Assembly (NCBI GenBank): GCA_039194425.1
Contig: JBCCVZ010000018.1
Span: 68,164 to 132,163, forward strand
Origin: Acidobacteriota bacterium
GTDB taxonomy: Bacteria > Acidobacteriota > Thermoanaerobaculia > Multivoradales > J023
DNA length: 64,000 nucleotides
Direction of reading: 5' to 3'
Shown here piece by piece: positions 1,540-34,414 of the stretch (positions are counted from its first letter, which is position 1; every line of letters starts with the position of its first letter). A model generated the notes under the pieces. That model had not been told where the DNA came from, did not search any database, and saw only the letters and a list, made by a program, of their open reading frames with translations. Position numbers and translations under genes: made by a program.

Positions 1540-2313
1540 TCAGGCGCCATCCGGCACCGCCGCCGGCACCCGCCGCGGCATCGGCAGCAGGTCGACCTGG
1601 CCGACCTCGAACTCGAACGGGATCTCGGGACAGAGCCAGGCCGAGTGCGGACGCGTCCAGCATTCCGGATCGACCTGGGGGAAGAGGTGCTCGAGCAGGC
1701 CGTGCCGCGACACCTGGGCGTCGAGCGGCCAGACATCGACCGTCGGATGCGAGCGCTTGATCGCGCGGAGACGCCCCTCGAAGGTGACGTAGCCGCGCGG
1801 CCGACGACGGAAATAGTCGACCGTACGGCGCCAGTCGCCGAGGGTCGGTCCGTCGCCGTGCCGCGGCGAGGCGAGCTCGGCATCGACCGCCAGCGACACC
1901 TGCGGCGAGAGCGCGCCGCCGCGCAGCGACCAGTGCCAAGAGCCGACGTCCGGCTCGGCGGACGGTCGCGGGAACGAGAAGAGCCCGGCGCGAGCCGGCT
2001 GGCGGCCGAGGAAGCGCGAGATCGGCACCACCCACGGCGGCACCATCACCCGCCGGAAGAGCACCGACGAGACGCTTTCCTCGTCGAGCACGTAGAGGCG
2101 CAGACTCATCTGCGGGTACGACAGCGCCGGGAACGGCAGCGACGTCGGCCGGAGGCCGGTGAGCCGGAACAGCAGCGCCGACAGGAACACGACGTCGACG
2201 TCGCGCCAACGGTGCAGCTCATAGCGCAGGGGCGCCGGCGGCGACGGCAAGGCAGCCCGAGGAACGGCCCAGTTGAGGTAGAGGCAGTCCCGGGCCTCGG
2301 TACGCAGCTGCAT
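1540..2313 (-). CDS. conserved hypothetical protein (possibly DUF2071-like)
   Basis: 257-aa ORF with coding-like composition, lying between the methylthiotransferase and coaD on the same strand. I recognise no catalytic motifs. Confidence 0.4.
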   Translation of the reverse strand: MQLRTEARDCLYLNWAVPRAALPSPPAPLRYELHRWRDVDVVFLSALLFRLTGLRPTSLPFPALSYPQMSLRLYVLDEESVSSVLFRRVMVPPWVVPISRFLGRQPARAGLFSFPRPSAEPDVGSWHWSLRGGALSPQVSLAVDAELASPRHGDGPTLGDWRRTVDYFRRRPRGYVTFEGRLRAIKRSHPTVDVWPLDAQVSRHGLLEHLFPQVDPECWTRPHSAWLCPEIPFEFEVGQVDLLPMPRRVPAAVPDGA

Positions 2314-2336
2314 TAGCGGATTCTACGCCATGCCGA

Positions 2337-2840
2337 TCAAGCGTCGGCCGGCTCGGCGCCAGCGCTGCTCTGAGGCATGCGACGCAGAACCTCGGGCGGC
2401 ACGAGCTCCGAGCAGTCGCCGCCGAGGAGATGAACCTCCTTCACCAGACGGCTCGAGACATAGCTGTACTCTTCCTTCGGCGTCAGGAAGACGGTCTCGA
2501 TGTCGGACGACAGGCGGCGGTTCATCAGCGCCATCTGAAACTCGGACTCGAAGTCCGACACGGCGCGCAGGCCGCGCACGATGGTGCGCGCGCCGAGATC
2601 CGCCATGTAGTGCACAAGCAGACCGGAAAAGGTGTCGACCCGGCAGCCCTCGAGGTCGGCGACCACTTCGCGGATCAAGTCGACTCGCTCGTCGACCGTG
2701 AACAGCGGGTTCCTCTTCGCCGTGTTCACCAGGACCGCCACCACCACCTCGTCGAACAGAGGCCGGCAGCGCCGGATGATATCGAGGTGCCCGTTGTGCA
2801 GCGGATCGAACGAGCCGGGATAGACGCCGATGCGGTTCAT
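2337..2840 (-). CDS. coaD: phosphopantetheine adenylyltransferase
   Basis: The true start is the internal Met MNRIGVYPGSFDPLHNGHLDII (HxGH nucleotidyltransferase motif), at 2840 rather than the track start 2984. Its ATG overlaps the upstream gene's stop in an ATGA at 2837-2840. Confidence 0.9.
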   Translation of the reverse strand: MNRIGVYPGSFDPLHNGHLDIIRRCRPLFDEVVVAVLVNTAKRNPLFTVDERVDLIREVVADLEGCRVDTFSGLLVHYMADLGARTIVRGLRAVSDFESEFQMALMNRRLSSDIETVFLTPKEEYSYVSSRLVKEVHLLGGDCSELVPPEVLRRMPQSSAGAEPADA

Positions 2841-5272
2841 GGTGCTTCGAGCGTGAAGGTTAGCACGTTGAACGCGGCGTCCGTGGCACGCAGGATGGCG
2901 ACCGAGGCGTCGGACGGAACATCGAGCTCGAGGTTCTCGCGCCGGCTGTCGAGCAGGCCGTCGGCCGCCGGCACGCTGCGCCACGGGCCGGCGTCGACCG
3001 ACAGCTCGACCTCGCGGATCGGGCTGCGCTCGTCCTGGATGACGACGATCAGCCGCTCGCCCTCACGCTGATTGAGGCCGACACGCGGCGGTGTATGGTC
3101 GAGCAGCACCGGCTCGGAGAGCTGCACTGCCGTGCGCGCGTCGCCGAGCGGCTGGGACGCACCGTCGCTGGCCTGCAGGCGGAAACGGTAGAGGCCGTCG
3201 GGCAGGGCCGTGGAGTCGAACGAGAACCACGTCCTGTCGAGCCCGTCGACGACCGGCAGCCAGCGGACGCCGTCCACGGCGACGATGCCAGATGCCGCGA
3301 GCGGCGCGACCTCGAGCCGGTACTGAAGCGTGTCGCCGTTGGCGTCGTCGGCGTCCCAGCGCAACGTCCGCCAGCCCTTCTTGTAGAGCGTCTTGAGGCG
3401 CGCCTCGTCGGTCGTCTGTTCCTTGCGCAGCGTGTCGAAGATTCCATCGCGGTTGGGCGACCAGGGCTCGAACGTGGTCGAGCTCGGATTGAAGCTCTGC
3501 TCGACCAGGATCGCCCCCGGATCCAGCGCCTCGAACGAGGTGACCCGCGGCGGCAGATTGCGCTGGCGATAGGTGAGCTCGACCGCGTCGACCCGCGGAC
3601 CGGCGTCGCTGCCGCCACGCTCGAGGTGGAGGCGCCACTGCAGGTAGCGGCCGTTGGGCAACGCCGCCAGCGGCGCCTCGGCGGTGACCAGCCCGCCGGC
3701 CGCGTCGCCCGGCTGCAGGTCGAGCTGCACGTCCGTCCACGGCGTCCAGGTGGCGTCGGGCTCTGCACTGGTCCCAGAGCGCACCGCGGCGCGTACCGCG
3801 GCACCCCGCGGCAGCAGGCCACGCCAGCGCAACGCGCCGAAGCGGGCGACCTGCGCCGCGTCGAGGCGATCCGATGTGTAGGTTCCATCGGTCGACGGAC
3901 CGTCGTCGAGGCGATGCAGCGCCGCGCCGTTGGTGGTGACGATTCCGACCCCGTCGTCACCGCGCACCAGGCCGACGATCTGTCGGCCCTCGAGCTCGGC
4001 CTCGCGAAGCACCTGGCCCACCCCGCCCTGTCCGTCGGCGCCGATCAGCGGATCGTGCATCCAGCGATAGAGGCGTCCCTCCTGGCCGGTACCGATCCAC
4101 AGGGCGTCGTCGTGCCAGAGCAGCGAGTGGATCGTCTCGTCGGCGAAGCTGGCGACATCCTCCGGCATGCCGCCGTCGGGCGGCAGGCGCACGACCAGCG
4201 CGCGCGGTCCCTGGGCGCCGCCGGCGCGCGAACCGATGGTCGGATTCTGCGGCGCCGACGCGTCGGCCTCCGCCTCGCCGCCCTGCGCGCCGTTGTTCTG
4301 CGACAGGTCGACGAAGCTCGCCTCGGACGCCAGGGCGGCGGCGAAGATCTCACCCTGCGGCCCGACGGCGAAGGCAGCGATCTCGGGTTGCGCGGCATCG
4401 TAGAGCGTCGAGGCGGCGACCGTGCCGGAGCCGGACTCGAGATCGAGGCGCTGAACCAGGCCCTGCCCGGCAGTACCGACCAGCACGTCGCCATCAGGCA
4501 GCACCGCCAGCGCGCGCAGATGGGCGTCGTTCGACTCGAACAGCAGCTCGGCGTCGCGCTCTCCCTCGGGATCGACCCGCCAGAGCCGCGCCGGCAGGCC
4601 GGTCGCGACCAGCAGATCGCCGTCGGCGGTCTCGGCCAGGCCCCAAACGTAGGTCGCCTCGGGATCGAAGATCACCTCACCCGAGGCGTCTTCTGACCCT
4701 TCGGGGTCGAGCCGCACCACCGCGCCGTCGGGCGAACCGGCGGCGTAGAGGCCGCTCGCGGCGCCGAGCACGGCGTAGACCTCGGGCGCCTCAAGCGTCG
4801 CCAGCACCTCGACGACACCGTCGCCAGCGACGCGTACTACCTTGCCCGAGCTGCCGGTGCCGAGCAGCCAGCCTCCGCCGCGGCGCACCGGCACCGCGTC
4901 GGCGGCGAAGACGAAGGGCTCATCGATCCCGGCGACGTGCTCGATAGCGCGCGACAGCGTCAGGGCGCCGCGCGCGTCGATCGACACACGCTCGACGTCG
5001 CCGGCGAGCGCCGCCTCCCGCGAGTCGACAACGAAGGTGCGCGCCGGCGAGGCCTCGGCGGGCAGCGCCGCGAAGCCGACGGCTGTGGCGAGTGCGAGGA
5101 TGCAGCCCGTGATGAGTCGGGGTCGATGGACGCGAGAGTGGTGACGACGGAGGGAGGGCTGGGTCGCGGACGGTCTCGGCACGATGATCCTCGACAGAGA
5201 GTGAAGAAACGATGGGGACTCGGGCACGGGCGGCGCCACCGACGGCGAGCACGGTGGCCGATGCTCAGCCAT
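2837..5272 (-). CDS. large secreted hypothetical protein (about 800 aa, beta-rich)
   Basis: 811-aa ORF with an N-terminal hydrophobic segment LITGCILALATAVGFAALPAEA that looks like a signal peptide; the real start may lie downstream of 5272. It is translationally coupled to coaD. I recognise no catalytic motif. Confidence 0.55.
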   Translation of the reverse strand: MAEHRPPCSPSVAPPVPESPSFLHSLSRIIVPRPSATQPSLRRHHSRVHRPRLITGCILALATAVGFAALPAEASPARTFVVDSREAALAGDVERVSIDARGALTLSRAIEHVAGIDEPFVFAADAVPVRRGGGWLLGTGSSGKVVRVAGDGVVEVLATLEAPEVYAVLGAASGLYAAGSPDGAVVRLDPEGSEDASGEVIFDPEATYVWGLAETADGDLLVATGLPARLWRVDPEGERDAELLFESNDAHLRALAVLPDGDVLVGTAGQGLVQRLDLESGSGTVAASTLYDAAQPEIAAFAVGPQGEIFAAALASEASFVDLSQNNGAQGGEAEADASAPQNPTIGSRAGGAQGPRALVVRLPPDGGMPEDVASFADETIHSLLWHDDALWIGTGQEGRLYRWMHDPLIGADGQGGVGQVLREAELEGRQIVGLVRGDDGVGIVTTNGAALHRLDDGPSTDGTYTSDRLDAAQVARFGALRWRGLLPRGAAVRAAVRSGTSAEPDATWTPWTDVQLDLQPGDAAGGLVTAEAPLAALPNGRYLQWRLHLERGGSDAGPRVDAVELTYRQRNLPPRVTSFEALDPGAILVEQSFNPSSTTFEPWSPNRDGIFDTLRKEQTTDEARLKTLYKKGWRTLRWDADDANGDTLQYRLEVAPLAASGIVAVDGVRWLPVVDGLDRTWFSFDSTALPDGLYRFRLQASDGASQPLGDARTAVQLSEPVLLDHTPPRVGLNQREGERLIVVIQDERSPIREVELSVDAGPWRSVPAADGLLDSRRENLELDVPSDASVAILRATDAAFNVLTFTLEAP

Positions 5273-7316
5273 CCCGGCGGACTTCGAGATCGAGGCGCAG
5301 CATGCCCTCGAGCGGACGGTCGAGCTCCTCGACGCTCTCGCCGAGAATGCGCAGATTCAGCGGCGCGGCGGCGCCCGGACCGGCGGCGCCGGCGTAGACC
5401 GAGCGCAGCGAGCCGGGCAGGTCGGGCAGCACCTCGCCGCCAAGCGACAGTCCCTGGGCTCCGACCAGGCCGACGACCTCGAGCTGTCGCCGCGACGACA
5501 GCGCACGAAGAGCCTCGAGCGACTGATCAAAGGTGGTGAGCTCACGCTTCTCCACCGACTGGCGTACGCCGTCCATGCTCGCGCCGTCGCCGATCATCAG
5601 CCAGTAGCGCCCGTCCGGCACGTTGTCCGGAATCGCCACCTGCAGGCGCCGACGCTCGGTCGGGCCGCGGTAGGGGTCGATCTCGAGCACGACGTCGAGC
5701 GTGTCCCCCGGAGCCACGCGATCGCGCGCCGGAAAGGCCCTGGCGAGAGTCATCGTGCGCGGCTCCGCGACCTGGTGGAAGCGCACGTCGACCGCTTCGA
5801 TGGTCGCGTTGCCGAGCGGATTGAGATCGAGGAAGGCGCCGATCTGGAGCAGGAAGACCACCGCCTCGGTGGCCGCGTCCGAGCCGTCGAAGCTCTGGCG
5901 CAAGACCAGGTCGTCGCGCGCGGCGAGCTGGAAGCGTGCCTCGACATCGATGCCCTGGAAGCCGGTGACGTAGCTGCCGGACGTGAGCGCGCCGAGCGCG
6001 CTGACCGCGATCAGGCTCGGGCGGAAGATCGACGAGTCGGCGACCTCCATCGCGTACTCGCGCTCGGTGAGGCCGTCGAGACGCACCGACACCGGCACCA
6101 TCGCGGGCTCGACGCCGAGCACGCCGTGAGCACCAGCCTCGCGATCCTGGTCGAAGACACCGAGCAGCGGCCCGACGTTCGACAGCTTGAACGAGCTCGA
6201 GGCGCTCGGCACCACGGCAATGACCTGCGACGCGGCCATCGGCAGGCGCGTCGGTCCGAGCGAGTAGACCGGGTGGCCGAAGGCGACGATCGAGTCGTCG
6301 CTGCGGTCGGTGACCGTGCCGTGTGCCGCCAGCGTCAGGTCGCCGCGCACCAGCACCAGCGCCACCGCGTCGCCCGGCTCGAGCTCGCCGTCGGACTCGG
6401 TGATCCGAGACGCCGAACCGGCCTCCGCGACACTCCGCGCCGCGCGCACGGGCCCGGTGGGCGCAGGAGCGGGCGCCAGCGCCGCCAGCGGCGACGGCGC
6501 CGCGCGCAGGCCGGTGCCGAGCGTGTTCTGCAGCAGGTCGGCGGCCGGCGCGCCGAAGCCCGACGCTGTCCAGCCGAGGGGCGAGGCGCCGCCGCCGAGA
6601 GCCGCCGCCGGACGCAGCAGCTCGAGGTGCCGCGTCAGCAGCTCTGGATCGACCTCGTGCCGCAGGATCGTCGCCAGCCGCGGCGCCAGCTCGGGCGCAC
6701 CGCGCGGCGCCGAGGCCACGCCGGCGGCCGGCTCCAAGGCCGGCGGCTCGAAGCGCAGCAGGCCGCCACTGGCGTCGCCCAGGCGCCGCATCGGCTCGAT
6801 CGGTGTGATGCCGGCGATCGGGTCGAGGCCGAACGAGAAGCTGAACGACACCGCGCCGACCAGCTTGCCGTCGATGTACACCGGCGAGCCGCTCATGCCC
6901 GCGGCGACACCACTGTGCTCCAGGCCCTGGCCGGACAGGCGAGCGAGCACATAGCTCAGATCGGGCGTCGAGTTGCGCCAGACGCCGAGCACTTCGACCT
7001 CGAAGCGCTCCGGCTCCGAGCCCGCGAACACGGACAGGCCGTAGCCACGCTGCCCGGGCTCGAGGGCGAAGAGGTCGAACGCCTCGGCCGACGGCAGGGC
7101 CGTCGCATCCAGTGACGGTGTCTCCATCGCCGGCGTGTCCATCGCAGGCGTCTGCGTCTTGCTCGTCACCGCGGCATCGACATCCGCATCGGCGCCACCG
7201 CGAGTCTCGCTCGCGCTCGTCGACGGCGCGAGCAGCACGAGCCCGGTGAGCGCGACGGCGGCGGCCATGTCCAGGTGGATGAGCACGGCGGCCCGCATCG
7301 AGTCGAAGAGTTTCAT
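5265..7316 (-). CDS. secreted peptidase, S55 (SpoIVB-like) serine protease family
   Basis: 683 aa with the signal peptide MKLFDSMRAAVLIHLDMAAAVALTGLVLLAPSTSA. It carries the trypsin-fold serine motif GMSGSPVYIDGKLVGAVSFSF, the same GMSGSP pattern seen in SpoIVB / S55 peptidases. Confidence 0.6.
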   Translation of the reverse strand: MKLFDSMRAAVLIHLDMAAAVALTGLVLLAPSTSASETRGGADADVDAAVTSKTQTPAMDTPAMETPSLDATALPSAEAFDLFALEPGQRGYGLSVFAGSEPERFEVEVLGVWRNSTPDLSYVLARLSGQGLEHSGVAAGMSGSPVYIDGKLVGAVSFSFSFGLDPIAGITPIEPMRRLGDASGGLLRFEPPALEPAAGVASAPRGAPELAPRLATILRHEVDPELLTRHLELLRPAAALGGGASPLGWTASGFGAPAADLLQNTLGTGLRAAPSPLAALAPAPAPTGPVRAARSVAEAGSASRITESDGELEPGDAVALVLVRGDLTLAAHGTVTDRSDDSIVAFGHPVYSLGPTRLPMAASQVIAVVPSASSSFKLSNVGPLLGVFDQDREAGAHGVLGVEPAMVPVSVRLDGLTEREYAMEVADSSIFRPSLIAVSALGALTSGSYVTGFQGIDVEARFQLAARDDLVLRQSFDGSDAATEAVVFLLQIGAFLDLNPLGNATIEAVDVRFHQVAEPRTMTLARAFPARDRVAPGDTLDVVLEIDPYRGPTERRRLQVAIPDNVPDGRYWLMIGDGASMDGVRQSVEKRELTTFDQSLEALRALSSRRQLEVVGLVGAQGLSLGGEVLPDLPGSLRSVYAGAAGPGAAAPLNLRILGESVEELDRPLEGMLRLDLEVRRDG

Positions 7317-8047
7317 CGCTTGAGATCGGGCTCCGCGGTCGTGAGGATGTGCTCGGCCGTCACACGACCCGGTCGCAGGACGTCGAAGCCGCCACGCGCT
7401 GAATTCCAGGCGACCACCGTCGAAGGCTCGCGGTGGCCGCCGAGCGGTCCTTCCACCAGCGCGACGTTGGCCGATCCGAGCGGCGAACCGTCGCCTCCGA
7501 GCGAGGCGCCGACCAGAGACTCCGATTCGAGGCGAGCGAGAAGTTCTTCGACGGCGAGAGCATCGACGAGCGGAGGCTCGCCGGAGAGGTTGGCGCTCGT
7601 CGCCGTCAGGCCGAATCCTAGAGCGTGCAGCACCGCGCGCAGCGGCTCGTGGGCCGGAACGCGGACCGCAAGGGTCGTGCCGCCGGCCGCCGCGGGCGGT
7701 GACCCAAAGCCCGCGCGCAGCGGCGAGACTACAGTGAGCGGCGCCGGCCAGAGGCGCGCGGCGGCGGCCAGCTCCGGCGCGGCTGGATCGAGGCCGAGAG
7801 CGGCGACCTGCTCGAGATCAGCGACGACCAGCGGCAGCGGCTTGCCGCGCTCGCGTTCCTTCAGCCGGTAAATCCGCTCGACGCCCTCGGCGCTGTGCGG
7901 ATCGGCGGCGAGGCCGTAGCTCGAGCCGGTGGGAATGGCGACGACGCCGCCCCGGCGGAGCAGGCGCGCGAGCGGACGCGGATCGTCACCCAAGCGCCAG
8001 CGCGGCACGCGCCCCCCTGCGTCAGTCGGCAAGGCTCGCTCCGGCAC
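7313..8047 (-). CDS. tsaC: L-threonylcarbamoyladenylate synthase (TsaC/YrdC/Sua5 family)
   Basis: Core YrdC motifs are present: VVAIPTGSSYGLAADP, RIYRLKERERGKPLPLVVAD and LTATSANLSGEPP. The N-terminus overlaps the recN 3' end by about 26 bp, so the true start may be downstream of 8047. Confidence 0.8.
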   Translation of the reverse strand: MPERALPTDAGGRVPRWRLGDDPRPLARLLRRGGVVAIPTGSSYGLAADPHSAEGVERIYRLKERERGKPLPLVVADLEQVAALGLDPAAPELAAAARLWPAPLTVVSPLRAGFGSPPAAAGGTTLAVRVPAHEPLRAVLHALGFGLTATSANLSGEPPLVDALAVEELLARLESESLVGASLGGDGSPLGSANVALVEGPLGGHREPSTVVAWNSARGGFDVLRPGRVTAEHILTTAEPDLKR

Positions 8048-9782
8048 CGACGATCAGCGAGCGTGCATGCTCGCGCGACGTCTCGGTGAGCTCACTGCCG
8101 GCGATCATTCGCGCGACCTCGTCGATCCGTCCGTCGGCGTCGAGCGTCTCGACGGCGGTGCGGGTACGGCCGTCGTCGACCCGCTTGCGGACGCGAAAAT
8201 GCACGTCGGCGCAGCTCGCGACCTGCGGCAGGTGGGTGACCGCCAACACCTGGCCGCCCTCGGCCAGGCGCCGCAGCTTGGCGCCGAGTGTGGCGGCCTC
8301 GGCGCCGCTGATGCCGGCGTCGACCTCGTCGAACACCAGCGTGGCGCCGGCGCGCGCGGTCTCATCGCCGACCGCCGCGACGCCGCGGCTGGCGAGCTGC
8401 ACCGCCAGATAGAGGCGCGACAGCTCGCCGCCGGAGGCGACGCGCGCCAGCGGACGCGGCTCCTCGCCCGGGTTGGGAGCGAAGAGGTAGGTCACCTGGT
8501 CGAAGCCGAGCGGCCCGAACTCGACCGGCACGGCCTCGTCGTCGACCAGCCGATGCAGCGGGCTGTCGTCGCGCCGCCGCAAACCGAAGTCGACGCGGAA
8601 GAGCGCCTTGCCGAGCGCCAGCTCGCCGAGGTGCGAGCCAACCAGCTCCTCGAGCTGCTCGGCCCAGCCGCGCCGCGCCGCCGACAGCTCCTCGGCGACG
8701 GTGCGGTAGCTCTCGAGCGCGGCCGCGGCCTGGTCGCGGAGCGCCTCGGCACCACCTTCCGCGTCCTCGAGCTCGTCGAGCTCGGCGACCAGCGAGGCAT
8801 GCTGCTCCAGCACCTCGGCCGAGGTCGCGCCGTACTTGCGGAACAACCTCTCCAGAGTCGCCAGGCGCTCCTCCACCGCGTCGAGCCGGAGCGGGTCCGA
8901 CTCCACCTCGTCGAGACGCCGTTGAACGTCGGTCTCGAGCTCGCCGAGGCGAATCGCGACGTCGTCGAGCTCGCCGGCCCAGGTCGAAGCCTGTTCCTCC
9001 CAGGCCGAGACGTCGCGCAGCGCCTGACGCGCCGACACCACCCGCTCCGTCGCCGCCTCGTCGCCGAAGAGCGCGTCGACAGCCCGCGTCAGACCGTCGC
9101 GGATCGCCTCGGCGTGACGCAGCACCTCACGCTCGCGCCGCAGCTCGTCCTCCTCACCGGTCTCGAGGTCGGCGCGGTCGATCTCGCCGATCTGGAAGCG
9201 CAGCAGGTCGATGCGCTCAGCGCGGATGCGCTCGTCGCCGGTCAGCCGCTCGAGCTTGTCGGCGAGCGCCCGCCATCCGTCGTGCGCGGCGGCCACGCGG
9301 GCCAGCAGATCGCGCGCCGGCGCGCCGCCGCAGCGATCGAGCCAGGTGCGCTGCAGCTCGGGCTCGACCAGCCCGAGCTCTTCGCGCTGGCCGTGAATGC
9401 GCAGCAGCGACGGCGCGAGGTCGGCGAGTAGTTTGAGCGTCACCGGATGATCGTCGACGAAGACACGGTTGCGCCCACTGCGCTGGATCTCACGCCTCAC
9501 CACGACCTCGTCGCCCTGCGGCTCGAGGCCCGCCTCGTGCAAGACCGCACGCCAGCGAGCACCGTCGGGCGCGAAGACACCGGTCACCACCAGTGTGTCG
9601 GCACCGGTGCGGATCAGATCGCTCGAGGCGCGCACGCCGCCGAGCAGCGCCAGCGAATCGACCACGATCGATTTGCCGGCACCGGTCTCGCCGGAGAGCA
9701 CGTTGAAGCCGTCGCCGAAGGCGATCACGGCGTTCTCGACCACGGCGAGATTTCGAATGTGGAGGTCGATCAGCATGGGCAC
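8022..9782 (-). CDS. recN: DNA repair protein RecN
   Basis: 586 aa. The N-terminal Walker A is [17 protein letters not shown], followed by a long coiled-coil centre and the C-terminal SMC-like signature [13 protein letters not shown] with Walker [13 protein letters not shown]. Confidence 0.9.
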
Positions 9783-9837: not shown

Positions 9838-10836
<999 letters not shown>

Positions 10837-11034: not shown

Positions 11035-11895
11035 TCAGCCGTCGACCAGCTCTTCGGCTCGGCGACGCGCTTCCACCACGGCTTTGATCAGAGTCACCCG
11101 CAAGCCGCCCTCTTCCAGCTCGAGAATGCCGTCCATGGTGCAGCCGGCGGGCGTCGTCACTTCGTCCTTGAGCAGCGCCGGATGATCCCCCGTCTCGACC
11201 ACCATGTGGCCGGCGCCGAGGCACGCCTGCGCCGCCAGCTCGGTCGCCACCTTGCGCGGCAGGCCGACCTTCACCCCGCCTTCGGCCAGCGCCTCGATCA
11301 CCATGTAGATGAACGCCGGGCCACTCGCCGACAGGCCGGTGACGGCGTCGAAGTACTTCTCATCGAGCACGGTCGCCCGTCCGAGGCGCGCGAACAGCGC
11401 CTCGGCGGTCGCCAGGTGCTCGGCACGCGCCGCTCGACCTCCGCAGATCGCGGTCATGCCGTGACCGATGCGCGCCGGCGTGTTCGGCATCGCGCGCACC
11501 ACCGGCACTGTGGGCTGGGCCGTGAGGTCGGCCTCGATCCCGCGCGCCAGCGCCTGCTCGGTCTGCGTCGTGGTCAATCCGGCGATGATCGACACCAGAA
11601 CCTGGTCGGCCGTGAGCTCGGGCGCGATCTGCACCAACACCGCCGGCGCCACCTGCGGCTTCACGCACAGCAGAATCCACTCCGCCCCACGCACCGCGGC
11701 GCGGTTGTCGGTCGTTGTCGTGACGCCGTAGCGCTCGGCGACCAGCCGCAGCCGCGCCTCGTGCCGCGCCGTCGCCACCACATCCTCTGGCGCGACGATC
11801 CCAGCCGCGGTGAGCGCCCCGATGAGCGTCTCCCCCATCTTGCCGGCCCCGATCACCGCCAGTCTGCCGAGTTTCGGACTCTGGGTCTCGTCCAT
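11035..11895 (-). CDS. proC: pyrroline-5-carboxylate reductase
   Basis: Carries the Rossmann motif LAVIGAGKMGETL and the P5CR signature SASGPAFIYMVIEALAEGGVKVGLPR with a TTPAGCTMDGI C-terminus. Confidence 0.85.
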   Translation of the reverse strand: MDETQSPKLGRLAVIGAGKMGETLIGALTAAGIVAPEDVVATARHEARLRLVAERYGVTTTTDNRAAVRGAEWILLCVKPQVAPAVLVQIAPELTADQVLVSIIAGLTTTQTEQALARGIEADLTAQPTVPVVRAMPNTPARIGHGMTAICGGRAARAEHLATAEALFARLGRATVLDEKYFDAVTGLSASGPAFIYMVIEALAEGGVKVGLPRKVATELAAQACLGAGHMVVETGDHPALLKDEVTTPAGCTMDGILELEEGGLRVTLIKAVVEARRRAEELVDG

Positions 11896-11901
11896 CGTGT
11901 G

Positions 11902-12801
11902 TCACTCGCCGCGCAGCATGGCGCGCATCACGTGGCCGGCGAGCTTTGGGTTCTCGCGCAGGCGACGCACCGAGTAGTGGTACCAGTCGGTGCCGTAGGG
12001 AACGTAAACGCGCAGCGGGTGGCCTCCGGCGAGCAAAATGCGGCGCAGGGCCGGCTCGACGCCGAGGAGCATCTGGAACTCGTATTGGTCGCGCGGCACG
12101 TCGAGCTTGTCGACCAGCGCGACGGCGCCGCAGATCAGGTACTCGTCGTGCGTCGCGATGCCGACGTAGACGCCCTGGCGCAGCAGCTTCTCGAGCGCCG
12201 CCAGGAAGTTCAGCCGCACCACGTCGTAGCCCTGCCAGGCGACCTCGCGCGGCTCGATGTAGATGCCCTTGCACAGGCGCACGTTGGCGCCTTCGGCCGG
12301 CATTTCGGCGATGTCGCGCAGAGTGCGCCGCATGTAGGACTGGAACACCGGACCGACGTTGCCGTAGCGATCGTGCAGCCAGCGGAAGATGCGCAGCGTC
12401 GCGTCGATCGTCGTGTGGTCTTCCATGTCGAGGCGCACGAAAAGACCCTTTTCCTTTGCCGCCGCGACCACACCGTCGTACGTGTCGCGGCAAAAGGTCT
12501 CGTCGATCTCGAGCCCCATCTGCGTCGGCTTCACCGAGATGTTGCAGTCGAGGCCGTCGGCGACGATGCGTTCGAGGATCCGGTGGTACTCCGCCGCCGC
12601 CTTCTCCGCCGTGGCGCGCTCGGTGACCTCCTCGCCGAGCAGGTCGACGGTGGCGCTGGCACCGTCCTCGTTGAGCTCGCGGATCGCCTCGACGGCAGAG
12701 TCGAGAGTCTCGCCCGCGACGTAGCGGGCGGCCACCTTGCCGACCACGAATTTCGGAACCAGGGGCAGCCCGGTGACGACGGCGCGATCGAAGAGGGACA
12801 T
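11902..12801 (-). CDS. proline dehydrogenase (monofunctional PRODH)
   Basis: Internal start MSLFDRAVV at 12801. The PRODH TIM-barrel region includes VSVKPTQMGL, LDMEDHT and YVPYGTDWYHYSVRRLRENP. It lies 7 bp upstream of proC on the same strand. Confidence 0.8.
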   Translation of the reverse strand: MSLFDRAVVTGLPLVPKFVVGKVAARYVAGETLDSAVEAIRELNEDGASATVDLLGEEVTERATAEKAAAEYHRILERIVADGLDCNISVKPTQMGLEIDETFCRDTYDGVVAAAKEKGLFVRLDMEDHTTIDATLRIFRWLHDRYGNVGPVFQSYMRRTLRDIAEMPAEGANVRLCKGIYIEPREVAWQGYDVVRLNFLAALEKLLRQGVYVGIATHDEYLICGAVALVDKLDVPRDQYEFQMLLGVEPALRRILLAGGHPLRVYVPYGTDWYHYSVRRLRENPKLAGHVMRAMLRGE

Positions 12802-12821
12802 GCGGCGGTGGCTCTCCGCGA

Positions 12822-14186
12822 TCAGGCGCCGGCGGCGGCCGGTGTCGTGAGGGTCGACGCGTCGTCGGCGACGGGCTCGTCGCGCACCCAGCGCACCGAT
12901 TTCGAACACGGACAGCTGCCGGCCACGCGCCGCAGCTGCGGCATGCGGCGCGCCGCGTCGTCGGCCTCGAGCTCGCCATCGGCCACCTGGCGTAGCGTCT
13001 TGGCGTAGTCGAGGAAGTCGCGGTTGGCGAGGTACGACTCGGGCAGCGTACGGCGCAGGTGCGCCATGTACGCCTGATACGGATCGTCCTCGGTGTCGAA
13101 GCTCTCGCCAGCGACGCCGACCAGGCGGAACGCGGGCACGCCGCGGCGCCGGAAGTAGTCGGCATGCGGCATGGTCAGCAGGTCGTCGGCGTCGATGCCG
13201 CGCTTCTTGCCGCCGTCGCGCTTCAGCCGATCGACCAGATCGCGCGCCTCACCGATCGACAGCGACTCGTCCTTGGCGCGGACGTAGCGCATGTTCAGGT
13301 CGTTGACCAGCTTCGCCACCTCGTCGAAGTACTGCGACTGCGCCTCGGCGTTCTTCATCGGCTTCAGACCCATGCGCACGTTGGAGCCACCGCCACGCTC
13401 GTCGCCGAACATCTCGAGGCCGCGCGGAAGCCACTTGTTGATCGCCTTCTGCAGCATGTCCATGGTGACGTAGATCTCGCCCTGGGCGGCCTGGGTCACC
13501 CAGCGGCGCATCGGCACCACGCCGGTCGCCAGGTGGAAAGCTTCCTCGCGCAGCATCTGTGGCATCGACTCGGCCATCGGCTTGTAGGCCGAAATGCGCT
13601 GCATCGCCAGCTGGTACTTGCCGACGCGGTCGATCAAGGCACAGAAGACGACGTTGTCGACGAACGAGTCGAAGTCGATGTTGAAGGCACCGAGCACGTG
13701 CGACCCGGTCTGCATCGACAGGATCTCTTCGACCATGTCGGCGCTCGACTGCTGAGTCTGGCACGACCAATCATCGTCGACCAGCAGATGCAGCATCTGG
13801 TAGCCGTGACGCAGCTCTTCGGCCATCATGCGCAGCACCCAGACCTGCTCTTCCTCGTTCTGCGCGCGGGCGAGCGTCAGACGGTGCTGCTGGATCGAGC
13901 CGAACTCGGTCGACGCCTGGGCGCGAATCGCGCCGAGCAGGTAGTGCGCCTGGTCGTCGTCGAGCTCGGCCGGCATCGTCGCCTTCGCCTCACCCTGGCG
14001 GGCGCCGCATTCGATCTGGTCGCACACGCCCTTCTCGCGGTAGGCGCAGAGCTTGAACATCGGCTCCTTGGGAAAATGCTTCTCCCAGGCCTCGAGCAGA
14101 AAGCCGTAGTCGGGCAAGAACGTGTCGCGCCAGTCTTCAACGGCTTGGTGGTATTTCTTCGGCAGGTGAGTTTCGCGAACTGCCAT
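12822..14186 (-). CDS. ferritin-like di-iron oxygenase, benzoyl-CoA oxygenase component B (BoxB) family
   Basis: 454 aa. Candidate di-iron ligands E94 (STEFGS), E125/H128 (AEELRHG), D187 (ALIDR), E216/H219 (REEAFH) show E-30-ExxH-59-D-29-ExxH spacing. This matches the BoxB ligand spacing as I recall it (Glu120/Glu150/His153/Asp211/Glu240/His243), and the length fits BoxB at about 470 aa. Confidence 0.55.
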   Translation of the reverse strand: MAVRETHLPKKYHQAVEDWRDTFLPDYGFLLEAWEKHFPKEPMFKLCAYREKGVCDQIECGARQGEAKATMPAELDDDQAHYLLGAIRAQASTEFGSIQQHRLTLARAQNEEEQVWVLRMMAEELRHGYQMLHLLVDDDWSCQTQQSSADMVEEILSMQTGSHVLGAFNIDFDSFVDNVVFCALIDRVGKYQLAMQRISAYKPMAESMPQMLREEAFHLATGVVPMRRWVTQAAQGEIYVTMDMLQKAINKWLPRGLEMFGDERGGGSNVRMGLKPMKNAEAQSQYFDEVAKLVNDLNMRYVRAKDESLSIGEARDLVDRLKRDGGKKRGIDADDLLTMPHADYFRRRGVPAFRLVGVAGESFDTEDDPYQAYMAHLRRTLPESYLANRDFLDYAKTLRQVADGELEADDAARRMPQLRRVAGSCPCSKSVRWVRDEPVADDASTLTTPAAAGA

Positions 14187-14278
14187 GCGGGGTCTCCTTC
14201 AAGTCGATCGGCCCCAGGGAGCGCGAGAGGTCCGTCTTCGGGAAAGGGAGTTGGGGGAGGGAAAGAAGGGAGACGCGG

Positions 14279-14761
14279 TCAGAGGCTCAGAGCGTACGGG
14301 CGCAGCGTCGACGGCTCGAAGCCGAGCGAGCCGAAGAAGCTCGCGATGCCGGCCATGTCTTCATCGACCAGAGTGCGCACCGTCGTCGCCCCGGAGGCGC
14401 GGAAGTGGGCGAGGATCGCCTCGGCCAGACGACGGCCGACGGCGCGCCCGCGGAATTCGGGGTCGACGCCCAACACCTCGATCCAGCCGGTCGGCTCTTC
14501 GAGGCCGAACTCGCCAGAGCGAACCTCGCCGAGCATGAAACCGACCACCTGGCCATCGACAACCGCGACCTGGGCCGCCTCTGGGTCGCGCCGCAGGTAG
14601 TAGCCACAGCGTGTCTCCCAGATGTCGGGACGGTACTGACCGGTGATCTGCTCGTCGATCCGCACCACGTCACCGATGTCGACGGTGTCGAGCTGGCGAA
14701 TCGTCACGCCAGTCGGTTCTGCGGACGCATGGTCTTGGGACGATCGATTGTCGGAGCTCAT
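14279..14761 (-). CDS. GNAT-family N-acetyltransferase
   Basis: The acetyl-CoA binding region reads VVGFMLGE...IEVLGVDPEFRGRAVGRRLAEAI (Q/RxxGxG/A-like). The start is probably the internal Met MSSDN at 14761. Confidence 0.7.
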   Translation of the reverse strand: MSSDNRSSQDHASAEPTGVTIRQLDTVDIGDVVRIDEQITGQYRPDIWETRCGYYLRRDPEAAQVAVVDGQVVGFMLGEVRSGEFGLEEPTGWIEVLGVDPEFRGRAVGRRLAEAILAHFRASGATTVRTLVDEDMAGIASFFGSLGFEPSTLRPYALSL

Positions 14762-14870: not shown

Positions 14871-15860
14871 TCAGACCGCGATTCCGGACGGCGCCCGCTC
14901 GCTCTCGAGCCGTCCGCCGGCGCGCAGCTCGTGGCCGACGTGCTCGTGCGCATGGTACGACGAGCGCACCAACGGCCCCGACTCGCAGTGCGCGAAGCCG
15001 AGCTCCAGCGCGAAGCGCTTGAACTCCGCAAACTCCTCGGGCGTGACGAAGCGGTCGACCGGCAGGTGCTGCGCCGTCGGCTGGAGGTACTGGCCGAGGG
15101 TGACGACGTCGACCCCCGCCCCGCGGATGTCGCGCAGCGTCTCGTGCACCTCGTCGGGCGTCTCACTGAGACCGACCATGATGCCGGTCTTCACCCGTCC
15201 GGCGTACTCGCCCGCATCGCGTCGGCGCGACGCCTCGGCGAGCAGCTCCAGGCTGCGCTCGTAGCGGCTGCCGGGGCGCGCCTTGCGGTACATCCGCGGC
15301 ACCGTCTCCATGTTGTGACTGAAGATCTCGGGCCGCGCGCCGAGCACGATGTCGAGCGCGTCGGGCACGGCGCGGAAATCGGGCGTCAGCACTTCGACCG
15401 CGGTCTGCGGGCAGCGCGCATGCACCGCCTCGATCACCTCCGCCCAATGGCGCGCGCCGCCGTCGGGCAGGTCGTCGCGATCGACTGAGGTGATCACCGC
15501 GTGGCGCAGTCCCATCACCTCGACCGCCTCGGCGACATGTGCCGGCTCGTCGGGATCGGGCCCGGCGGGCGGACGCCCCGAGGTCACCGCGCAGAAGCCA
15601 CAGCGGCGGGTGCAGACGTCACCGAGGATCATCAGCGTCGCCGTGCCGTGCTCACCCCAGCACTCGTAGATGTTCGGGCAGCGCGCCTCGGCGCAGACGG
15701 TATTGAGATTCAGGCGTTCGACCAGGTCCTTGACCTGGCGATAGCGCTCCGGCGTGGCGATGCGGATGCGCAGCCAGTCCGGGCGCCGGGAACGGGAACG
15801 GGCCGCCGCGTCGCTGGTCGGCTTGTTGCGGTGGGCCCCGAGTTGGACGAGTTTGCTCAT
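14871..15860 (-). CDS. lipA: lipoyl synthase
   Basis: Two cysteine clusters are present: CEARCPNIYEC (auxiliary cluster) and CTRRCGFCAV (radical SAM CxxxCxxC). The C-terminal SSY motif is also there. Confidence 0.9.
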   Translation of the reverse strand: MSKLVQLGAHRNKPTSDAAARSRSRRPDWLRIRIATPERYRQVKDLVERLNLNTVCAEARCPNIYECWGEHGTATLMILGDVCTRRCGFCAVTSGRPPAGPDPDEPAHVAEAVEVMGLRHAVITSVDRDDLPDGGARHWAEVIEAVHARCPQTAVEVLTPDFRAVPDALDIVLGARPEIFSHNMETVPRMYRKARPGSRYERSLELLAEASRRRDAGEYAGRVKTGIMVGLSETPDEVHETLRDIRGAGVDVVTLGQYLQPTAQHLPVDRFVTPEEFAEFKRFALELGFAHCESGPLVRSSYHAHEHVGHELRAGGRLESERAPSGIAV

Positions 15861-21993: not shown

Positions 21994-23225
21994 CGTGTGG
22001 GGGCGAAGCCGAATCGTTCGCGGTATGCGCCGAAGCCCTGGGCCAGCGACGCGGCGTCGAGTCCGAAGTCGTCGAGGTGGTAGCGATGAATGCCGTAGCG
22101 ATGCTGCACCTGCACGCGGAGGGCCTGCTCCATCGCAGATCGCGCCGGTGTTTCGAGCGACAGACCTGCGAAGGCGTAGATCCGCTCGATCGTGGCCAGG
22201 GGATCGTCCAGGAGGTCGTCGTACGAGATGTCGAGCACCGGGGTCTCGTGGGCGGCGCGGAAGGCCAGGCCGCGCTCGACCATTCGGGCGACCTTGGCGC
22301 TCCACTGCGCGCCGACGCTGTGCGGATCGACCGCATCGCTGAAGATTCGGCGACCGTGCGTCACCATCGAGCAGAAGCTCGGCACCGTGGTCAACGGATC
22401 GCGGTGAGTCCAGACCACGCGCGCCTCGGGAATCACCGCATGCAGCGCCTCGAGAAACTCGAGGTGATGCGGCGTCTTGAGCACCCACCAGCGCCGCGGC
22501 TGCTGCTCCTGCAAGATCACCAGGAGCAGGCGCAGCGTCTCGTACGCCTCGCGGTGGTCTTGCGCTTCGAGCCAGCGCGAAAAGCTCGGCACATGCCACA
22601 TCGCTTCGGCGGTCGTGGAATGGAAGGTCGGATCGAGCAGCAAGACATCCTCTTCCGGCGCGCGATGCTCCACCGGGTGGATGGCGAAGAACTCGGGTGC
22701 CATCCAGCGCAGCGCGCGCTCGGCGCGACGGGCGCGCGCGATGCGGCCGGCGTCGTCGCGCGACCGGCGCGGATCCGGCACCGGCTCGACGGCCTGCCAC
22801 GAAAGCAGCGCTCCGGCGTCCGGGTCGGCGGCGAGCAGGCGCTGCAGCTTGGTGGTGCCGGTGCGCTGCATGCCCGTGATCACCACCACCGGCGCTGCCA
22901 GCGTGGCGGTGCGCAGCCGCGGATGGGCCTCTAGCGTCGCCTGGAGACGCAGCCGGGTGACCAGATGGCCGATCAACTGCTCGCGGACGATCCAGCGACC
23001 GAGCGGATGGAGCCGCGCCTCGGTTTCGAGCGCGTGACAGAGACGCTCGAGACCGTCGCGCCAGGCGCCGGCGCCGAAGTCGTCGAGGCGCGCGCGGCGA
23101 CGGGCGGCGCGCAACAACGCCGCGGGCTCCAGGCGTGGCCGGCCCCCGATCGCCGCGGCGGCGCGGGCCGCGGCACGCACCGCACGCAGGCTCATCGAGG
23201 GCGACATCGACGCGAGACCCGTCAT
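21990..23225 (-). CDS. sulfotransferase-family protein
   Basis: The PAPS 5'-phosphosulfate-binding loop is VVITGMQRTGTTKLQRLL, with a 3'-PB-like region WVLKTPHHLEF. The start MTGLAS (23225) overlaps the upstream stop in an ATGA. Confidence 0.7.
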   Translation of the reverse strand: MTGLASMSPSMSLRAVRAAARAAAAIGGRPRLEPAALLRAARRRARLDDFGAGAWRDGLERLCHALETEARLHPLGRWIVREQLIGHLVTRLRLQATLEAHPRLRTATLAAPVVVITGMQRTGTTKLQRLLAADPDAGALLSWQAVEPVPDPRRSRDDAGRIARARRAERALRWMAPEFFAIHPVEHRAPEEDVLLLDPTFHSTTAEAMWHVPSFSRWLEAQDHREAYETLRLLLVILQEQQPRRWWVLKTPHHLEFLEALHAVIPEARVVWTHRDPLTTVPSFCSMVTHGRRIFSDAVDPHSVGAQWSAKVARMVERGLAFRAAHETPVLDISYDDLLDDPLATIERIYAFAGLSLETPARSAMEQALRVQVQHRYGIHRYHLDDFGLDAASLAQGFGAYRERFGFAPTR

Positions 23226-24535
23226 GTTGGCAACTCCGCCAGCTCCGCGAACGGCAGCACGCGACAGCGCGGCGTCGGCGGGTCGTCGACGCGCGGGCGC
23301 TGCCAGCGCCAGCACATCGTGCCGCGGTCGTGGCCGGCGGTGTCGATCCAGTGGTCGCGCCCCGGATCGCGGTGGGCGACGATCACGCGCACCCCACCGC
23401 CGGGGCGATAGACCGCCGTGTGGCGGTTCACATGGATCTGGAAGTAGCGATAGTCGAGCGACTCCATCCACCAGTTGTTGAGCTGGAAGTTCCAGCTCTC
23501 GCACGGCGGCGGTTCGGCTTCGATCACCAGCGCCTCGTCGGGGCCGAGCTGCCAGTACGAGTGGTAATAGGCGATGTCGGGCACACCGCCGGCGGCGTCG
23601 CTACGTTCCTGGTCGAAGCGCGGTAGCCGGTTCGGATGCTCCGACTTGAATTCGTTCGCCCAGCGCGCGAAGAGCATCGACGTCGCGGCGACCAGACCCG
23701 CCGCCTTGCCGAGGCCGACGTCCAGAGCACGGGCGCTGAGGGGGGTCGGCGTCGCCGGACCGTCGAGCGCTTCGATCGTGAGGTCGGCCTCGGTCTCGGA
23801 GTCACGGTCGAGGAAGGTCTGGCGGACGATCAACAGGCTCGTGTCGGCGTGCATCTGCAGCCAGTTGCGCGCCTCCGCGGGACGCTCCGGAGCGAGGATG
23901 ATCTCGAACCGGCCGCCCGAGTCGAGCACCAGGTCGGCGACATCGAGGTAGCCGCTGGTCGCCAGGCCGCCTTCGTCGAAGTAGCCGCCGCGCTGCAGGC
24001 CAAAGCCGAGCGAGTGGACGCTGCCGCGGTGACCGTGGACCCGGTAGCGATAGCGGCCGTCGAGCTGCGCGTTGAGATAGGCGTTGTCCGGGTTGTCGGC
24101 GCCCATCTTCACGGTTTCGTGGACCATCCGACGCAGCGTCGGAAAGGCCGGGTCGTCGTGCTCGAGGAAGGCCTCGAGTCCAGCGCGGGTGAGGCGCGCG
24201 AGGTAGCGGTAGCCCTCCGCTTGGCTCAAGGTGTCGCGCGGCGCGTCGCCGTGCGCCAGCGCGGCGCCCGCGGCTTTCAGCGTGTCGCAGAACTCGTCCC
24301 ACGACTGCCCCGAGACGACGCGCCCGGCGTGGACGTCGTCCTCGCTGCGCCCGCGCAGGCCGAGCATGCGCAGGCGAAACGCCCGGTAGAGACCGAAGGC
24401 ACGAATCAGCAGTCTGCGGAGCATGGCGCCGGATGATACCTCTGCTTCTGCACATTCGGCCTGCGATGAGGCAGATCGGCGACGATCTGCGCGTGTCTGC
24501 TGATCCAGGGCCTCCAGCCTGCGGTCCCGGGTCAT
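23222..24535 (-). CDS. conserved hypothetical protein (DUF1214/DUF1254-like)
   Basis: 437-aa ORF and first gene of a 3-gene translationally coupled operon. Its conserved C-terminal region reads WNFQLNNWWMESLDYRYFQIH. The start may be the internal MLRRLL at about 24424. Confidence 0.45.
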   Translation of the reverse strand: MTRDRRLEALDQQTRADRRRSASSQAECAEAEVSSGAMLRRLLIRAFGLYRAFRLRMLGLRGRSEDDVHAGRVVSGQSWDEFCDTLKAAGAALAHGDAPRDTLSQAEGYRYLARLTRAGLEAFLEHDDPAFPTLRRMVHETVKMGADNPDNAYLNAQLDGRYRYRVHGHRGSVHSLGFGLQRGGYFDEGGLATSGYLDVADLVLDSGGRFEIILAPERPAEARNWLQMHADTSLLIVRQTFLDRDSETEADLTIEALDGPATPTPLSARALDVGLGKAAGLVAATSMLFARWANEFKSEHPNRLPRFDQERSDAAGGVPDIAYYHSYWQLGPDEALVIEAEPPPCESWNFQLNNWWMESLDYRYFQIHVNRHTAVYRPGGGVRVIVAHRDPGRDHWIDTAGHDRGTMCWRWQRPRVDDPPTPRCRVLPFAELAELPT

Positions 24536-25385: not shown

Positions 25386-25476
25386 TCGACGATTTGACAG
25401 GGCCACCCTCACGGACTGGCCGTGATGGGTGGCCTTCCTTTATGTCGACCGCCACAATCTGCTATGTTGTCCCGCC

Positions 25477-33900: not shown

Positions 33901-34349
33901 TGAGCGTCCTCCGCCGTCCGTGACGTCCGGTCGGCTCGCGGCTCGAGCGCCTCGAGGATCGGGCAGCCACTCATCGCCGCGTCGGCATGCTCGCTGCGCT
34001 CCTCGCAGGCCGACACCAGCCGCGCCAACACGCCCCGCATCTGCTCGAGGTCGGCGATCCGCCGCTCGATGTCGTCGATCTTGGCCGACGCGGCGGCGCG
34101 TACCCGGTCGCGGTTCTCGGTCGGCCGCGCCCGCAGCGCCAGCAACTCGCCGATCTCGTCCAGCGTGAATCCCAGCTCCTTGGCGCGCCGGATGAAGCGC
34201 AGGCGATCGGCCGCCTCGGGTTCGTACTGTCGGTAACCCGACGGCCGTCGAGGCGGCTCCGCGAGCAGGCCGCGGCGCTCGTAGAAACGAATGGTTTCGA
34301 CGCCGACGTCGGCGGCACGCGCCAGCTGTCCGATGGTCAGAGTGTCCAT
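33897..34349 (-). CDS. cueR: MerR-family metal-responsive regulator (CueR/HmrR-like)
   Basis: The HTH is [29 protein letters not shown], followed by a dimerisation helix and the C-terminal metal-binding SGCPILEAL. Its stop overlaps the copA start in an ATGA. Confidence 0.8.
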
Positions 34350-34380
34350 AGGCTGTCTCCCGGCTCGTTCGTCCGAGGGA

Positions 34381-34413
34381 AGCCTACACTCCGTACTCGA
34401 CTACAGAGTCAAG
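34381..34413 (-). promoter_or_regulatory. MerR-type promoter candidate for cueR-copA (TTGACT-20bp-TAGGCT with internal imperfect dyad CTCTGTA-N6-TACGGAG)
   Basis: Read on the minus strand. The long spacer with an operator dyad between -35 and -10 is the hallmark of MerR-regulated promoters. It sits 32 bp upstream of the cueR ATG. Confidence 0.3.
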
Positions 34414-34414
34414 C

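Follow-up and report, generated by a model that had tools for sequence, protein, structure and literature searches.

A BoxB-like di-iron protein of Acidobacteriota with a constant GNAT-family neighbour and a lineage-restricted link to proline dehydrogenase

To our knowledge, BoxB and PaaA are the only characterised di-iron enzymes of their class that attack aromatic rings as coenzyme A (CoA) thioesters under oxygen. Here we analyse a BoxB-like protein of 454 amino acids, encoded upstream of genes for a proline dehydrogenase (PRODH) and for ProC, a pyrroline-5-carboxylate (P5C) reductase, in Acidobacteriota bacterium assembly GCA_039194425.1 (contig JBCCVZ010000018.1, positions 68,164 to 132,163; this whole stretch of 64,000 nucleotides is called the window). 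BoxB coordinates its irons through Glu120, Glu150 (bridging), His153, Asp211, Glu240 and His243, and a density functional theory study found that Gln116 hydrogen-bonds benzoyl-CoA and that Thr119, Ser123, Phe193, Phe203 (Phe206 in the model list) and Thr210 form a second shell orienting the benzoyl group (PMC5489048). BoxB needs BoxC to escape product inhibition, PaaA requires PaaB, PaaC and PaaE, and BoxC and PaaF/PaaG are crotonase-family enzymes (PMC4498308).

A sequence-only reading of the window had described the protein as an orphan BoxB-like oxygenase in an operon with PRODH and proC. The open reading frame (ORF) list bears out its three reading frames, on one strand and with the boundaries it gave; its 20-nucleotide spacer stands, and the spacer it put at 7 nucleotides measures 6. 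The cluster, including a GNAT gene that this reading had overlooked, is composed as follows (positions in the window):

14279-14761, minus strand: GNAT-family N-acyltransferase, 160 amino acids, start ATG 14761, Pfam Acetyltransf_1.
14187-14278, minus strand: spacer of 92 nucleotides between the GNAT and di-iron genes, pyrimidine-rich; ATG 14186 is preceded by a Shine-Dalgarno sequence, GAAGGAG.
12822-14186, minus strand: BoxB-like ferritin-fold di-iron protein, 454 amino acids, from the ORF list.
12802-12821, minus strand: spacer of 20 nucleotides between the di-iron gene and PRODH, read from the sequence.
11902-12801, minus strand: monofunctional PRODH, 299 amino acids, start ATG 12801.
11896-11901, minus strand: spacer of 6 nucleotides between PRODH and proC, read from the sequence.
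11035-11895, minus strand: ProC, P5C reductase, 286 amino acids, TIGR00112 at 271.8 bits (cut-off 196.75).

Sequence comparisons assign the 454-residue protein to the BoxB/PaaA class of ferritin-fold di-iron oxygenases, in a subfamily with no characterised member. Residues 91-300 match Pfam family PaaA_PaaC (PF05138) with 41.6 bits, above the gathering threshold of 28.5 (E 1.1e-10). The best curated NCBIfam model is BoxB (TIGR03225; 51.1 bits vs a cut-off of 499.1, and over model positions 85-259 of 471 only), the PaaA model TIGR02156 stays at 37.1 bits, below its cut-off of 280, and a PaaC signal is confined to a weak 21-bit match on this protein itself. A single-sequence search of solved structures returned SSO1313 (PDB ID 4MUD; E 1.3e-14), BoxB (1.7e-8) and PaaA (3e-4). 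When we matched a profile built from 22 family members to the sequences of solved structures, BoxB was recovered at E 2.6e-53 (184.7 bits), with profile positions 14-382 corresponding to BoxB residues 22-432, a stretch that takes in both the 'W' helix at the N terminus and the LP...F.R..G motif at the C terminus; 4MUD scored 2.7e-30 and PaaA ~1e-10 (8e-11). A confident AlphaFold2 model (predicted local distance difference test, pLDDT, 88.6; predicted template modelling score, pTM, 0.86) is disordered in the last 35 residues alone. In a Foldseek search with this model the top eleven PDB matches are BoxB chains (best E 4.5e-11; TM 0.59-0.61 over ~480 aligned columns, 17-19% identity), and 4MUD and PaaA come next. 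Profile and fold comparisons both cover the full-length BoxB architecture, a ferritin core with N- and C-terminal regions, and the protein is a full-length BoxB homologue. The earlier label 'BoxB-like' is thus upheld by the best curated model, the best full-length solved-structure match and the best fold match, and among the ferritin-like families compared the best profile match is BoxB.

HMMER alignments pair E94, E124, H127, D186, E215 and H218 with the six BoxB iron ligands, in four segments:

13896-13919, minus strand: Q90-A-S-T93-E94-F-G-S97, with ligand E94 and the shell Gln/Thr/Ser; aligns to BoxB Q116, T119, E120 and S123.
13806-13820, minus strand: E123-E124-L-R-H127, in which E124 corresponds to the bridging Glu E150 and H127 to the His ligand H153; invariant.
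13608-13634, minus strand: I185-D186-R-V-G-K-Y-Q-L, with ligand D186; aligns to BoxB T210-D211-R-D-G-K-F-Q-L.
13533-13550, minus strand: R-E214-E215-A-F-H218, with ligands E215 and H218 corresponding to BoxB E240 and H243; codons read; invariant.

The six ligands are invariant in all 163 full-length relatives taken from the loci described below, so the motif is not a chance resemblance; D186, G189, K190 and Q192 are likewise invariant. The sequence-only reading had E94 right and numbered each of the other five ligands one too high. Its claim of a residue-for-residue BoxB spacing holds for the pattern and fails in strict identity: the intervals are 30/3/59/29/3 compared with 30/3/58/29/3 in BoxB, the difference being one extra loop residue. 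Q90, T93, S97 and F168 occupy BoxB-type shell positions and are invariant (163/163), and F181, the equivalent of BoxB Phe206, is Phe in 158 relatives and Tyr in five. At the Gln/Thr/Ser positions PaaA has H, S and G and SSO1313 has R, F and M, so that among the compared solved structures these positions are common only to BoxB. Asn-178 and Ile-185 stand at the positions of BoxB Phe203 and Thr210. Conservation of Q90, T93, S97, F168 and F181, combined with these two exchanges, would fit a related thioester substrate, not necessarily benzoyl-CoA.

We compared gene contexts over 160 loci (80 from genomes, 80 from metagenomes) with heuristic ORF calls; the loci come mainly from one class, Thermoanaerobaculia, so that common descent raises the counts. 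Wherever the upstream sequence was long enough, the gene directly upstream of the oxygenase encodes a GNAT (142 of 142 loci; median gap 31 nucleotides), and this holds for oxygenases down to ~53% identity. In several loci the two genes overlap by 4 nucleotides (ATGA), one such overlap having been read directly in locus L147. Fitch parsimony on a quick neighbour-joining tree requires one change, a single gain, for GNAT adjacency vs about four gains or losses for PRODH adjacency, and at least 19 loci have the GNAT-oxygenase module with no PRODH next to it. In one lineage (P0122, 53% identical) the order is GNAT, oxygenase, glycogen phosphorylase. These data support GNAT plus oxygenase as the functional unit, with GNAT and not the proline genes as the constant partner. 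The window GNAT scores 51.8 bits on Acetyltransf_1 (PF00583; threshold 20.7) and reaches no specific NCBIfam equivalog. Its mechanical ORF extends to a TTG at 14803, and an independent gene call gives 160 amino acids. A 735-residue record (P0147) that appears to fuse GNAT, oxygenase and PRODH was rejected, as it reads as a frameshift-ridden record with garbled stretches, apparently a frameshifted assembly of the three-gene locus and no natural fusion.

PRODH follows the oxygenase immediately in 114 of 134 loci (median gap 46 nucleotides, range 3-256). The association is common among close relatives: it is seen in 114 of 121 loci (94%) whose oxygenase shares 62% identity or more with that of the window, and in none of 13 loci of a sister clade at 56-61% identity, which keeps GNAT. 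Distant relatives (30-41% identity) are never found beside PRODH, and beside GNAT in one loose exception. Where PRODH is missing, the downstream genes are unrelated to each other (a PMT glycosyltransferase, a DUF5916 protein, a histidine kinase, a Calx-beta protein, an AMP ligase). ProC follows PRODH in 12 of 100 loci only, which rules it out as part of the unit; an operon of PRODH, P5C reductase and oxygenase is therefore not a conserved arrangement. Of the linkage to proline metabolism that had been read from the window, the PRODH half is kept among close relatives and absent from the sister clade and from distant relatives, and the proC half does not stand. This supports PRODH as a lineage-restricted neighbour that the module does not require in the family as a whole, and proC as an occasional, incidental one. 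In this genome PRODH and proC are probably co-transcribed downstream of the oxygenase. A scan of the cluster found no terminator-like site between GNAT and proC, and the sole promoter-like site of the scanned stretch (10937-10909) lies downstream of proC, just before the FHA-GGDEF gene.

The surroundings of relatives point to aryl- or acyl-CoA chemistry. Distant relatives adjoin crotonase-family genes or TetR regulators: in one locus (L081) a TetR gene precedes the oxygenase and two crotonases and an alcohol dehydrogenase follow further on; in another (L082) a divergently transcribed crotonase lies beside the homologue; in a third (L083) a 492-residue double crotonase lies 2 nucleotides upstream of it, with a flavin adenine dinucleotide (FAD) enzyme downstream; and in a fourth (L089) a crotonase and an AMP-ligase fragment are its neighbours. 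Of the family's contexts, the one that points most clearly to aryl-CoA is L134 (62% identical; positions 1841-9772 of JGI metagenome contig Ga0214473_10005588), where a gene without assignment, a crotonase, GNAT, the oxygenase, two genes of the benzoate-CoA-ligase family and a NadB-like flavoprotein gene share one strand; on TIGR02262 (cut-off 375) the ligase-family genes reach 723.5 and 575 bits. A further locus, L120, shares the left part of this arrangement, including the crotonase. From these crotonase and benzoate-CoA-ligase contexts, together with the BoxB-type Gln/Thr/Ser/Phe shell, we infer an aryl- or acyl-CoA substrate. Acyl-CoA ligase-like genes near three other oxygenases (L002, L130 and L160) were discounted, being generic (an acyl-CoA synthetase, an NRPS, i.e. 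non-ribosomal peptide synthetase, adenylation domain and an acetate-CoA ligase) and inconsistent from locus to locus.

In the window itself the protein is indeed an orphan, as had been claimed. A tblastn search of the 64 kb with crotonase and benzoate-CoA-ligase-family queries gave no match, no CxxCxxCxxxCP ferredoxin motif occurs in any frame, and Pfam scans of 27 window ORFs, along with precomputed Pfam calls on an identical contig, which left out a few ORFs such as 61711-63957 and 33897-34999, detected no ECH, AMP-binding or Aldedh domain and no BoxA- or PaaE-like reductase. The scanned ORFs contain no paaB, paaC, paaD or paaE and no P5C (aldehyde) dehydrogenase. The nearest flavoprotein, a fusion of a cyclic-nucleotide-binding domain with a pyridine-nucleotide-disulphide oxidoreductase (thioredoxin-reductase-like), is encoded 24 kb away (37375-39012, minus strand). 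Clustering of neighbour ORFs and Pfam annotation of the recurrent ones found no reductase, ferredoxin, ligase or crotonase recurring in 100 related loci; L134 and L120 are the exception to this absence of box-type partners. Recurrent neighbours in Thermoanaerobaculia loci are an EamA transporter, an S9 peptidase, NadB, NadC, Crp and a CxxCxxCC protein, all of housekeeping character.

The explanation we favour, with a probability of about one half, is that of a GNAT-coupled BoxB-like oxygenase acting on an aryl- or acyl-CoA, with the proline genes as lineage-specific neighbours. The two irons would most likely be bound through E94, E124 (bridging), H127, D186, E215 and H218, and the di-iron centre would activate O2 and epoxidise or hydroxylate an aromatic or cyclic acyl-CoA thioester on its acyl moiety, the thioester being held by the BoxB-type shell of Gln90, Thr93, Ser97 and Phe168/Phe181. 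GNAT, an acyl-CoA-using enzyme, may consume or off-load the acyl-CoA substrate or product of the oxygenase, by analogy with the relief of product inhibition by BoxC or PaaZ in the Box and Paa pathways. The electron donor would be encoded away from the locus. Homology, iron ligands, fold and gene linkage are what the analysis shows; the CoA-thioester substrate, the oxygenase chemistry, the part played by GNAT and co-transcription are inferred. On present sequence evidence the 454-residue enzyme probably modifies an aromatic acyl-CoA rather than a proline-derived compound.

Several observations weigh against this explanation. No reductase, CoA ligase or crotonase is found in the window or in most Thermoanaerobaculia loci, so the case for a CoA thioester draws on homology and the contexts of a few relatives, a minority. 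The replacement of BoxB Phe203 and Thr210 by N178 and I185 means that the pocket is not that of BoxB. GNAT has as its closest solved structures Ard1, YpeA and RimI (all weak, E ~1e-5); it thus most resembles, if weakly, protein N-terminal acetyltransferases, which does not point to an aryl-CoA acyltransferase. The 94% PRODH adjacency among close relatives could reflect a physiological tie in the crown clade. A basal lineage (P0123, ~50% identical; L087, 7308-10473) has the order redoxin, oxygenase, PRODH with a 4-nucleotide gap to PRODH and without GNAT, whose place is taken by a thioredoxin-fold gene of the Redoxin/AhpC-TSA type; its PRODH is 64% identical to the window PRODH, and because of this the pair may be inherited synteny rather than an independent recruitment. 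A metagenome scan seeded on this lineage found no close relatives, its matches being members of the main and sister clades. Finally, the literature searched yielded no paper on this subfamily, on orphan BoxB-like proteins or on Thermoanaerobaculia PRODH.

The sequence-only reading had suggested an imino-acid- or pyrroline-modifying pathway, or a BoxB paralogue recruited to a non-aromatic substrate. The corresponding alternative, a single pathway of oxygenase, PRODH and ProC directed at proline, P5C or another imino acid, or equivalently a BoxB paralogue recruited to a non-aromatic, proline-derived substrate, is in our view unlikely. It would account for three genes on one strand with spacers of 20 and 6 nucleotides and no terminator-like site, for the frequency with which PRODH directly follows the oxygenase, and for the persistence of that pair in the P0123 lineage without GNAT. 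Set against this are the rarity of proC after PRODH, the complete absence of PRODH adjacency in a sister clade that retains GNAT, its repeated gain or loss on the tree, and the crotonase and TetR surroundings of distant relatives. The PRODH enzyme itself also argues against the idea. It matches Pro_dh (PF01619) with 106 bits (threshold 27) and aligns end to end with the enzymes from Thermus thermophilus (2ekg, E 4.4e-55) and Deinococcus radiodurans (4h6q, E 2.8e-54), keeping the Lys in 'VKPTQMG', the Arg-Arg in 'YSVRRLRENP' and the aligned Asp motif. With this conserved Lys/Arg-Arg carboxylate site it looks, from its sequence, like an ordinary free-proline enzyme with a canonical proline-binding site, although it stays below the cut-off of the NCBIfam equivalog 'ProDh_Thermus' (231 vs 500 bits). 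Its mechanical ORF extends to a GTG at 12909, overlapping the oxygenase gene by 88 nucleotides; homology supports a start at ATG 12801, as does an independent gene call for the identical contig. ProC carries P5CR_dimer and F420_oxidored domains as well. The block around the cluster (lipA, EamA, recN, a Sua5-like gene, FHA-GGDEF) is conserved housekeeping synteny, which again speaks against a dedicated proline pathway. The relatives' contexts, which point to aryl- or acyl-CoA chemistry, do not suggest the modification of imino acids or pyrrolines.

It is also improbable that the linkage has no functional meaning, with a stand-alone di-iron enzyme and with GNAT, PRODH and proC as inherited neighbours in a conserved block. 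Nearly all sampled loci are from Thermoanaerobaculia and share the same lipA ... recN ... Sua5-like backbone, and the intergenic gaps are mostly tens of bases rather than overlaps, as this alternative would have it. It is difficult to reconcile with the adjacency of GNAT in every informative locus down to ~53% identity while every other neighbour changes, and with the ATGA start/stop overlaps, which indicate translational coupling.

Still less probable is an ordinary benzoyl-CoA 2,3-epoxidase, that is a true BoxB orthologue, or an ordinary PaaA with its partner genes elsewhere in the genome. In its favour, BoxB gives the best curated match, one relative is flanked by benzoate-CoA-ligase-family genes, and public records name relatives 'phenylacetic acid catabolic protein' or '1,2-phenylacetyl-CoA epoxidase catalytic subunit'. 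True orthology to either enzyme was nevertheless rejected on the curated cut-offs (51 vs 499 bits for TIGR03225, 37 vs 280 for TIGR02156) and on the missing partner genes, no boxA or boxC having been found within the 64 kb; the identity of 17-19% to BoxB, the exchanged pocket residues F203 and T210, the family's own invariant GNAT partner and its Cys-Pro-Cys (CPC) tail all argue in the same direction. Least credible is a scheme in which PRODH, reduced at its flavin by proline, passes electrons to the di-iron centre and so stands in for BoxA or PaaE, while ProC, where present, recycles P5C to proline with NAD(P)H; a catalytic proline/P5C cycle would then act as an NAD(P)H:oxygenase reductase. 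In its favour, the window shows no BoxA- or PaaE-like reductase or ferredoxin motif, 100 related loci share no conserved reductase, the gene most often found downstream, PRODH, encodes a flavoenzyme, and proC starts 6 nucleotides after it here. Against it, at least 19 loci have GNAT and oxygenase but no neighbouring PRODH, distant relatives never have it, proC is linked in 12% of loci only, and we know of no precedent for a PRODH reducing a di-iron protein.

The family is compact and largely acidobacterial. A protein-database search gave 2613 matches at E <= 0.001, of which the best 120 are all at least 67% identical to the 454-residue protein; where named, these 120 are from Acidobacteriota, mostly Thermoanaerobaculia, and carry the public names 'phenylacetic acid catabolic protein' or '(1,2-)phenylacetyl-CoA epoxidase catalytic subunit'. 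An NCBI record of an Acidobacteriota metagenome-assembled genome (MAG) names a protein with the same sequence (100% identity). Of 1.84 billion representatives at 50% identity, only 416 match at E <= 0.001, more distant relatives among them, and 55 reach <= 1e-30; fragments are frequent in this set. The titles of the 80 best genome loci are mostly Thermoanaerobaculia or unclassified Acidobacteriota MAGs, with a few Holophagales, 'Candidatus Multivoradales' and 'bacterium' entries.

Beyond the BoxB-like architecture the protein carries a C-terminal tail:

12888-12914, minus strand: C425-P-C427-S-K-S-V-R-W433, tail motif, in a segment predicted to be disordered.

The pLDDT is below 50 for residues 420-454. 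Cys427-Ser428 is present in 155 and Trp433 in 157 of the 163 family members, and the pattern CPCS-K/R-S/A-V-R-W occurs in all 14 long-form rows of the family alignment and is missing from short or distant forms. The tail could serve in thiol redox chemistry, in metal delivery or as a docking peptide; speculatively, together with the redoxin gene of the P0123 lineage it may hint at thiol or metal handling. Separately, we noted short forms of 378 amino acids (L173-L175 and L090; ~30% identity) with a 'DTEFASVEQQ' motif close to that of BoxB. They have a TetR regulator immediately upstream and lack Box or Paa partners, which looks like another orphan branch. A single cluster member, P0292, is by itself on record for at least 24 contigs.

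Around the cluster, the following genes were assigned:

14871-15860, minus strand: lipA.
9838-10836, minus strand: FHA-GGDEF diguanylate cyclase, found repeatedly downstream of the cluster in related loci.
8022-9782, minus strand: recN, named from its conserved position and a reading of the translation.
7313-8047, minus strand: Sua5/YrdC-like gene, named from its conserved position and translation.

The G+C content of the region is 70%, which gives rise to numerous long spurious ORFs on both strands, and Rfam and tRNA scans of the window gave no match. Elsewhere in the window, three tandem genes (46842-53166, plus strand; 717, 667 and 553 amino acids) all carry a Peptidase_S74 'chaperone of endosialidase' domain at the C-terminal end and look like tail-fibre or adhesin paralogues; they occupy its lowest-G+C part (0.63-0.66), with strong negative GC skew. 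Long ORFs of up to 1180 amino acids with coding-like G+C content at third codon positions have no Pfam match at E <= 1e-5 (40965-44507, 2837-5272, 23222-24535, 25429-26661, 30239-31342 and 45668-46792).

The database label 'phenylacetic acid catabolic protein' is probably wrong for this family and would lead aromatic degradation to be overpredicted in Acidobacteria of soils and sediments. Identifying the substrate would define a new route of aryl- or acyl-CoA oxygenation in an abundant, largely uncultured lineage and would show how such an oxygenase works without a dedicated reductase gene. Were PRODH and ProC to supply the electrons after all, a bacterial oxygenase of the multicomponent type would be driven in a novel manner, in the service of a pathway for aryl-CoA modification coupled to GNAT.

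Compared with characterised enzymes, the PRODH of the window resembles those of T. thermophilus (2EKG/2G37) and D. radiodurans (4H6Q) over nearly its whole length and in the Lys, Asp and Arg-Arg motifs, and differs from the Thermus type in falling under the equivalog cut-off. SSO1313 from Sulfolobus solfataricus (235 amino acids), the best single-sequence PDB match of the oxygenase, superposes well on its core four-helix bundle (TM normalised to target 0.82, root mean square deviation 3.3 Å) and matches at all six ligand positions, but represents the core only, without the N- and C-terminal regions common to BoxB and the 454-residue protein; its PDB name is 'ring oxidation complex / phenylacetic acid degradation related protein', and the PDB record holds no further functional annotation. 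PaaA (3PVR/4IIT) shares the Pfam family, the ferritin-fold core and the E/ExxH/D/ExxH ligands, but lacks the BoxB-type terminal regions and gives a far weaker profile match than BoxB. BoxB from Azoarcus evansii (3PER/3PM5/3Q1G) is similar in size (~450-480 amino acids, consistent with a single-subunit enzyme) and homologous over its full length, the N-terminal extension as well as the 'LP...F.R..G' region at the C terminus; it shares only 17-19% identity with the 454-residue protein and differs in having boxA and boxC as partner genes, and in the invariant GNAT partner and the CPCS-K/R-S/A-VRW tail that mark the new family. The family forms a compact, strongly conserved third branch beside BoxB and PaaA, one that keeps the metal site and the substrate-anchoring residues of BoxB and has its reductase and ring-opening partners swapped for a translationally coupled GNAT.

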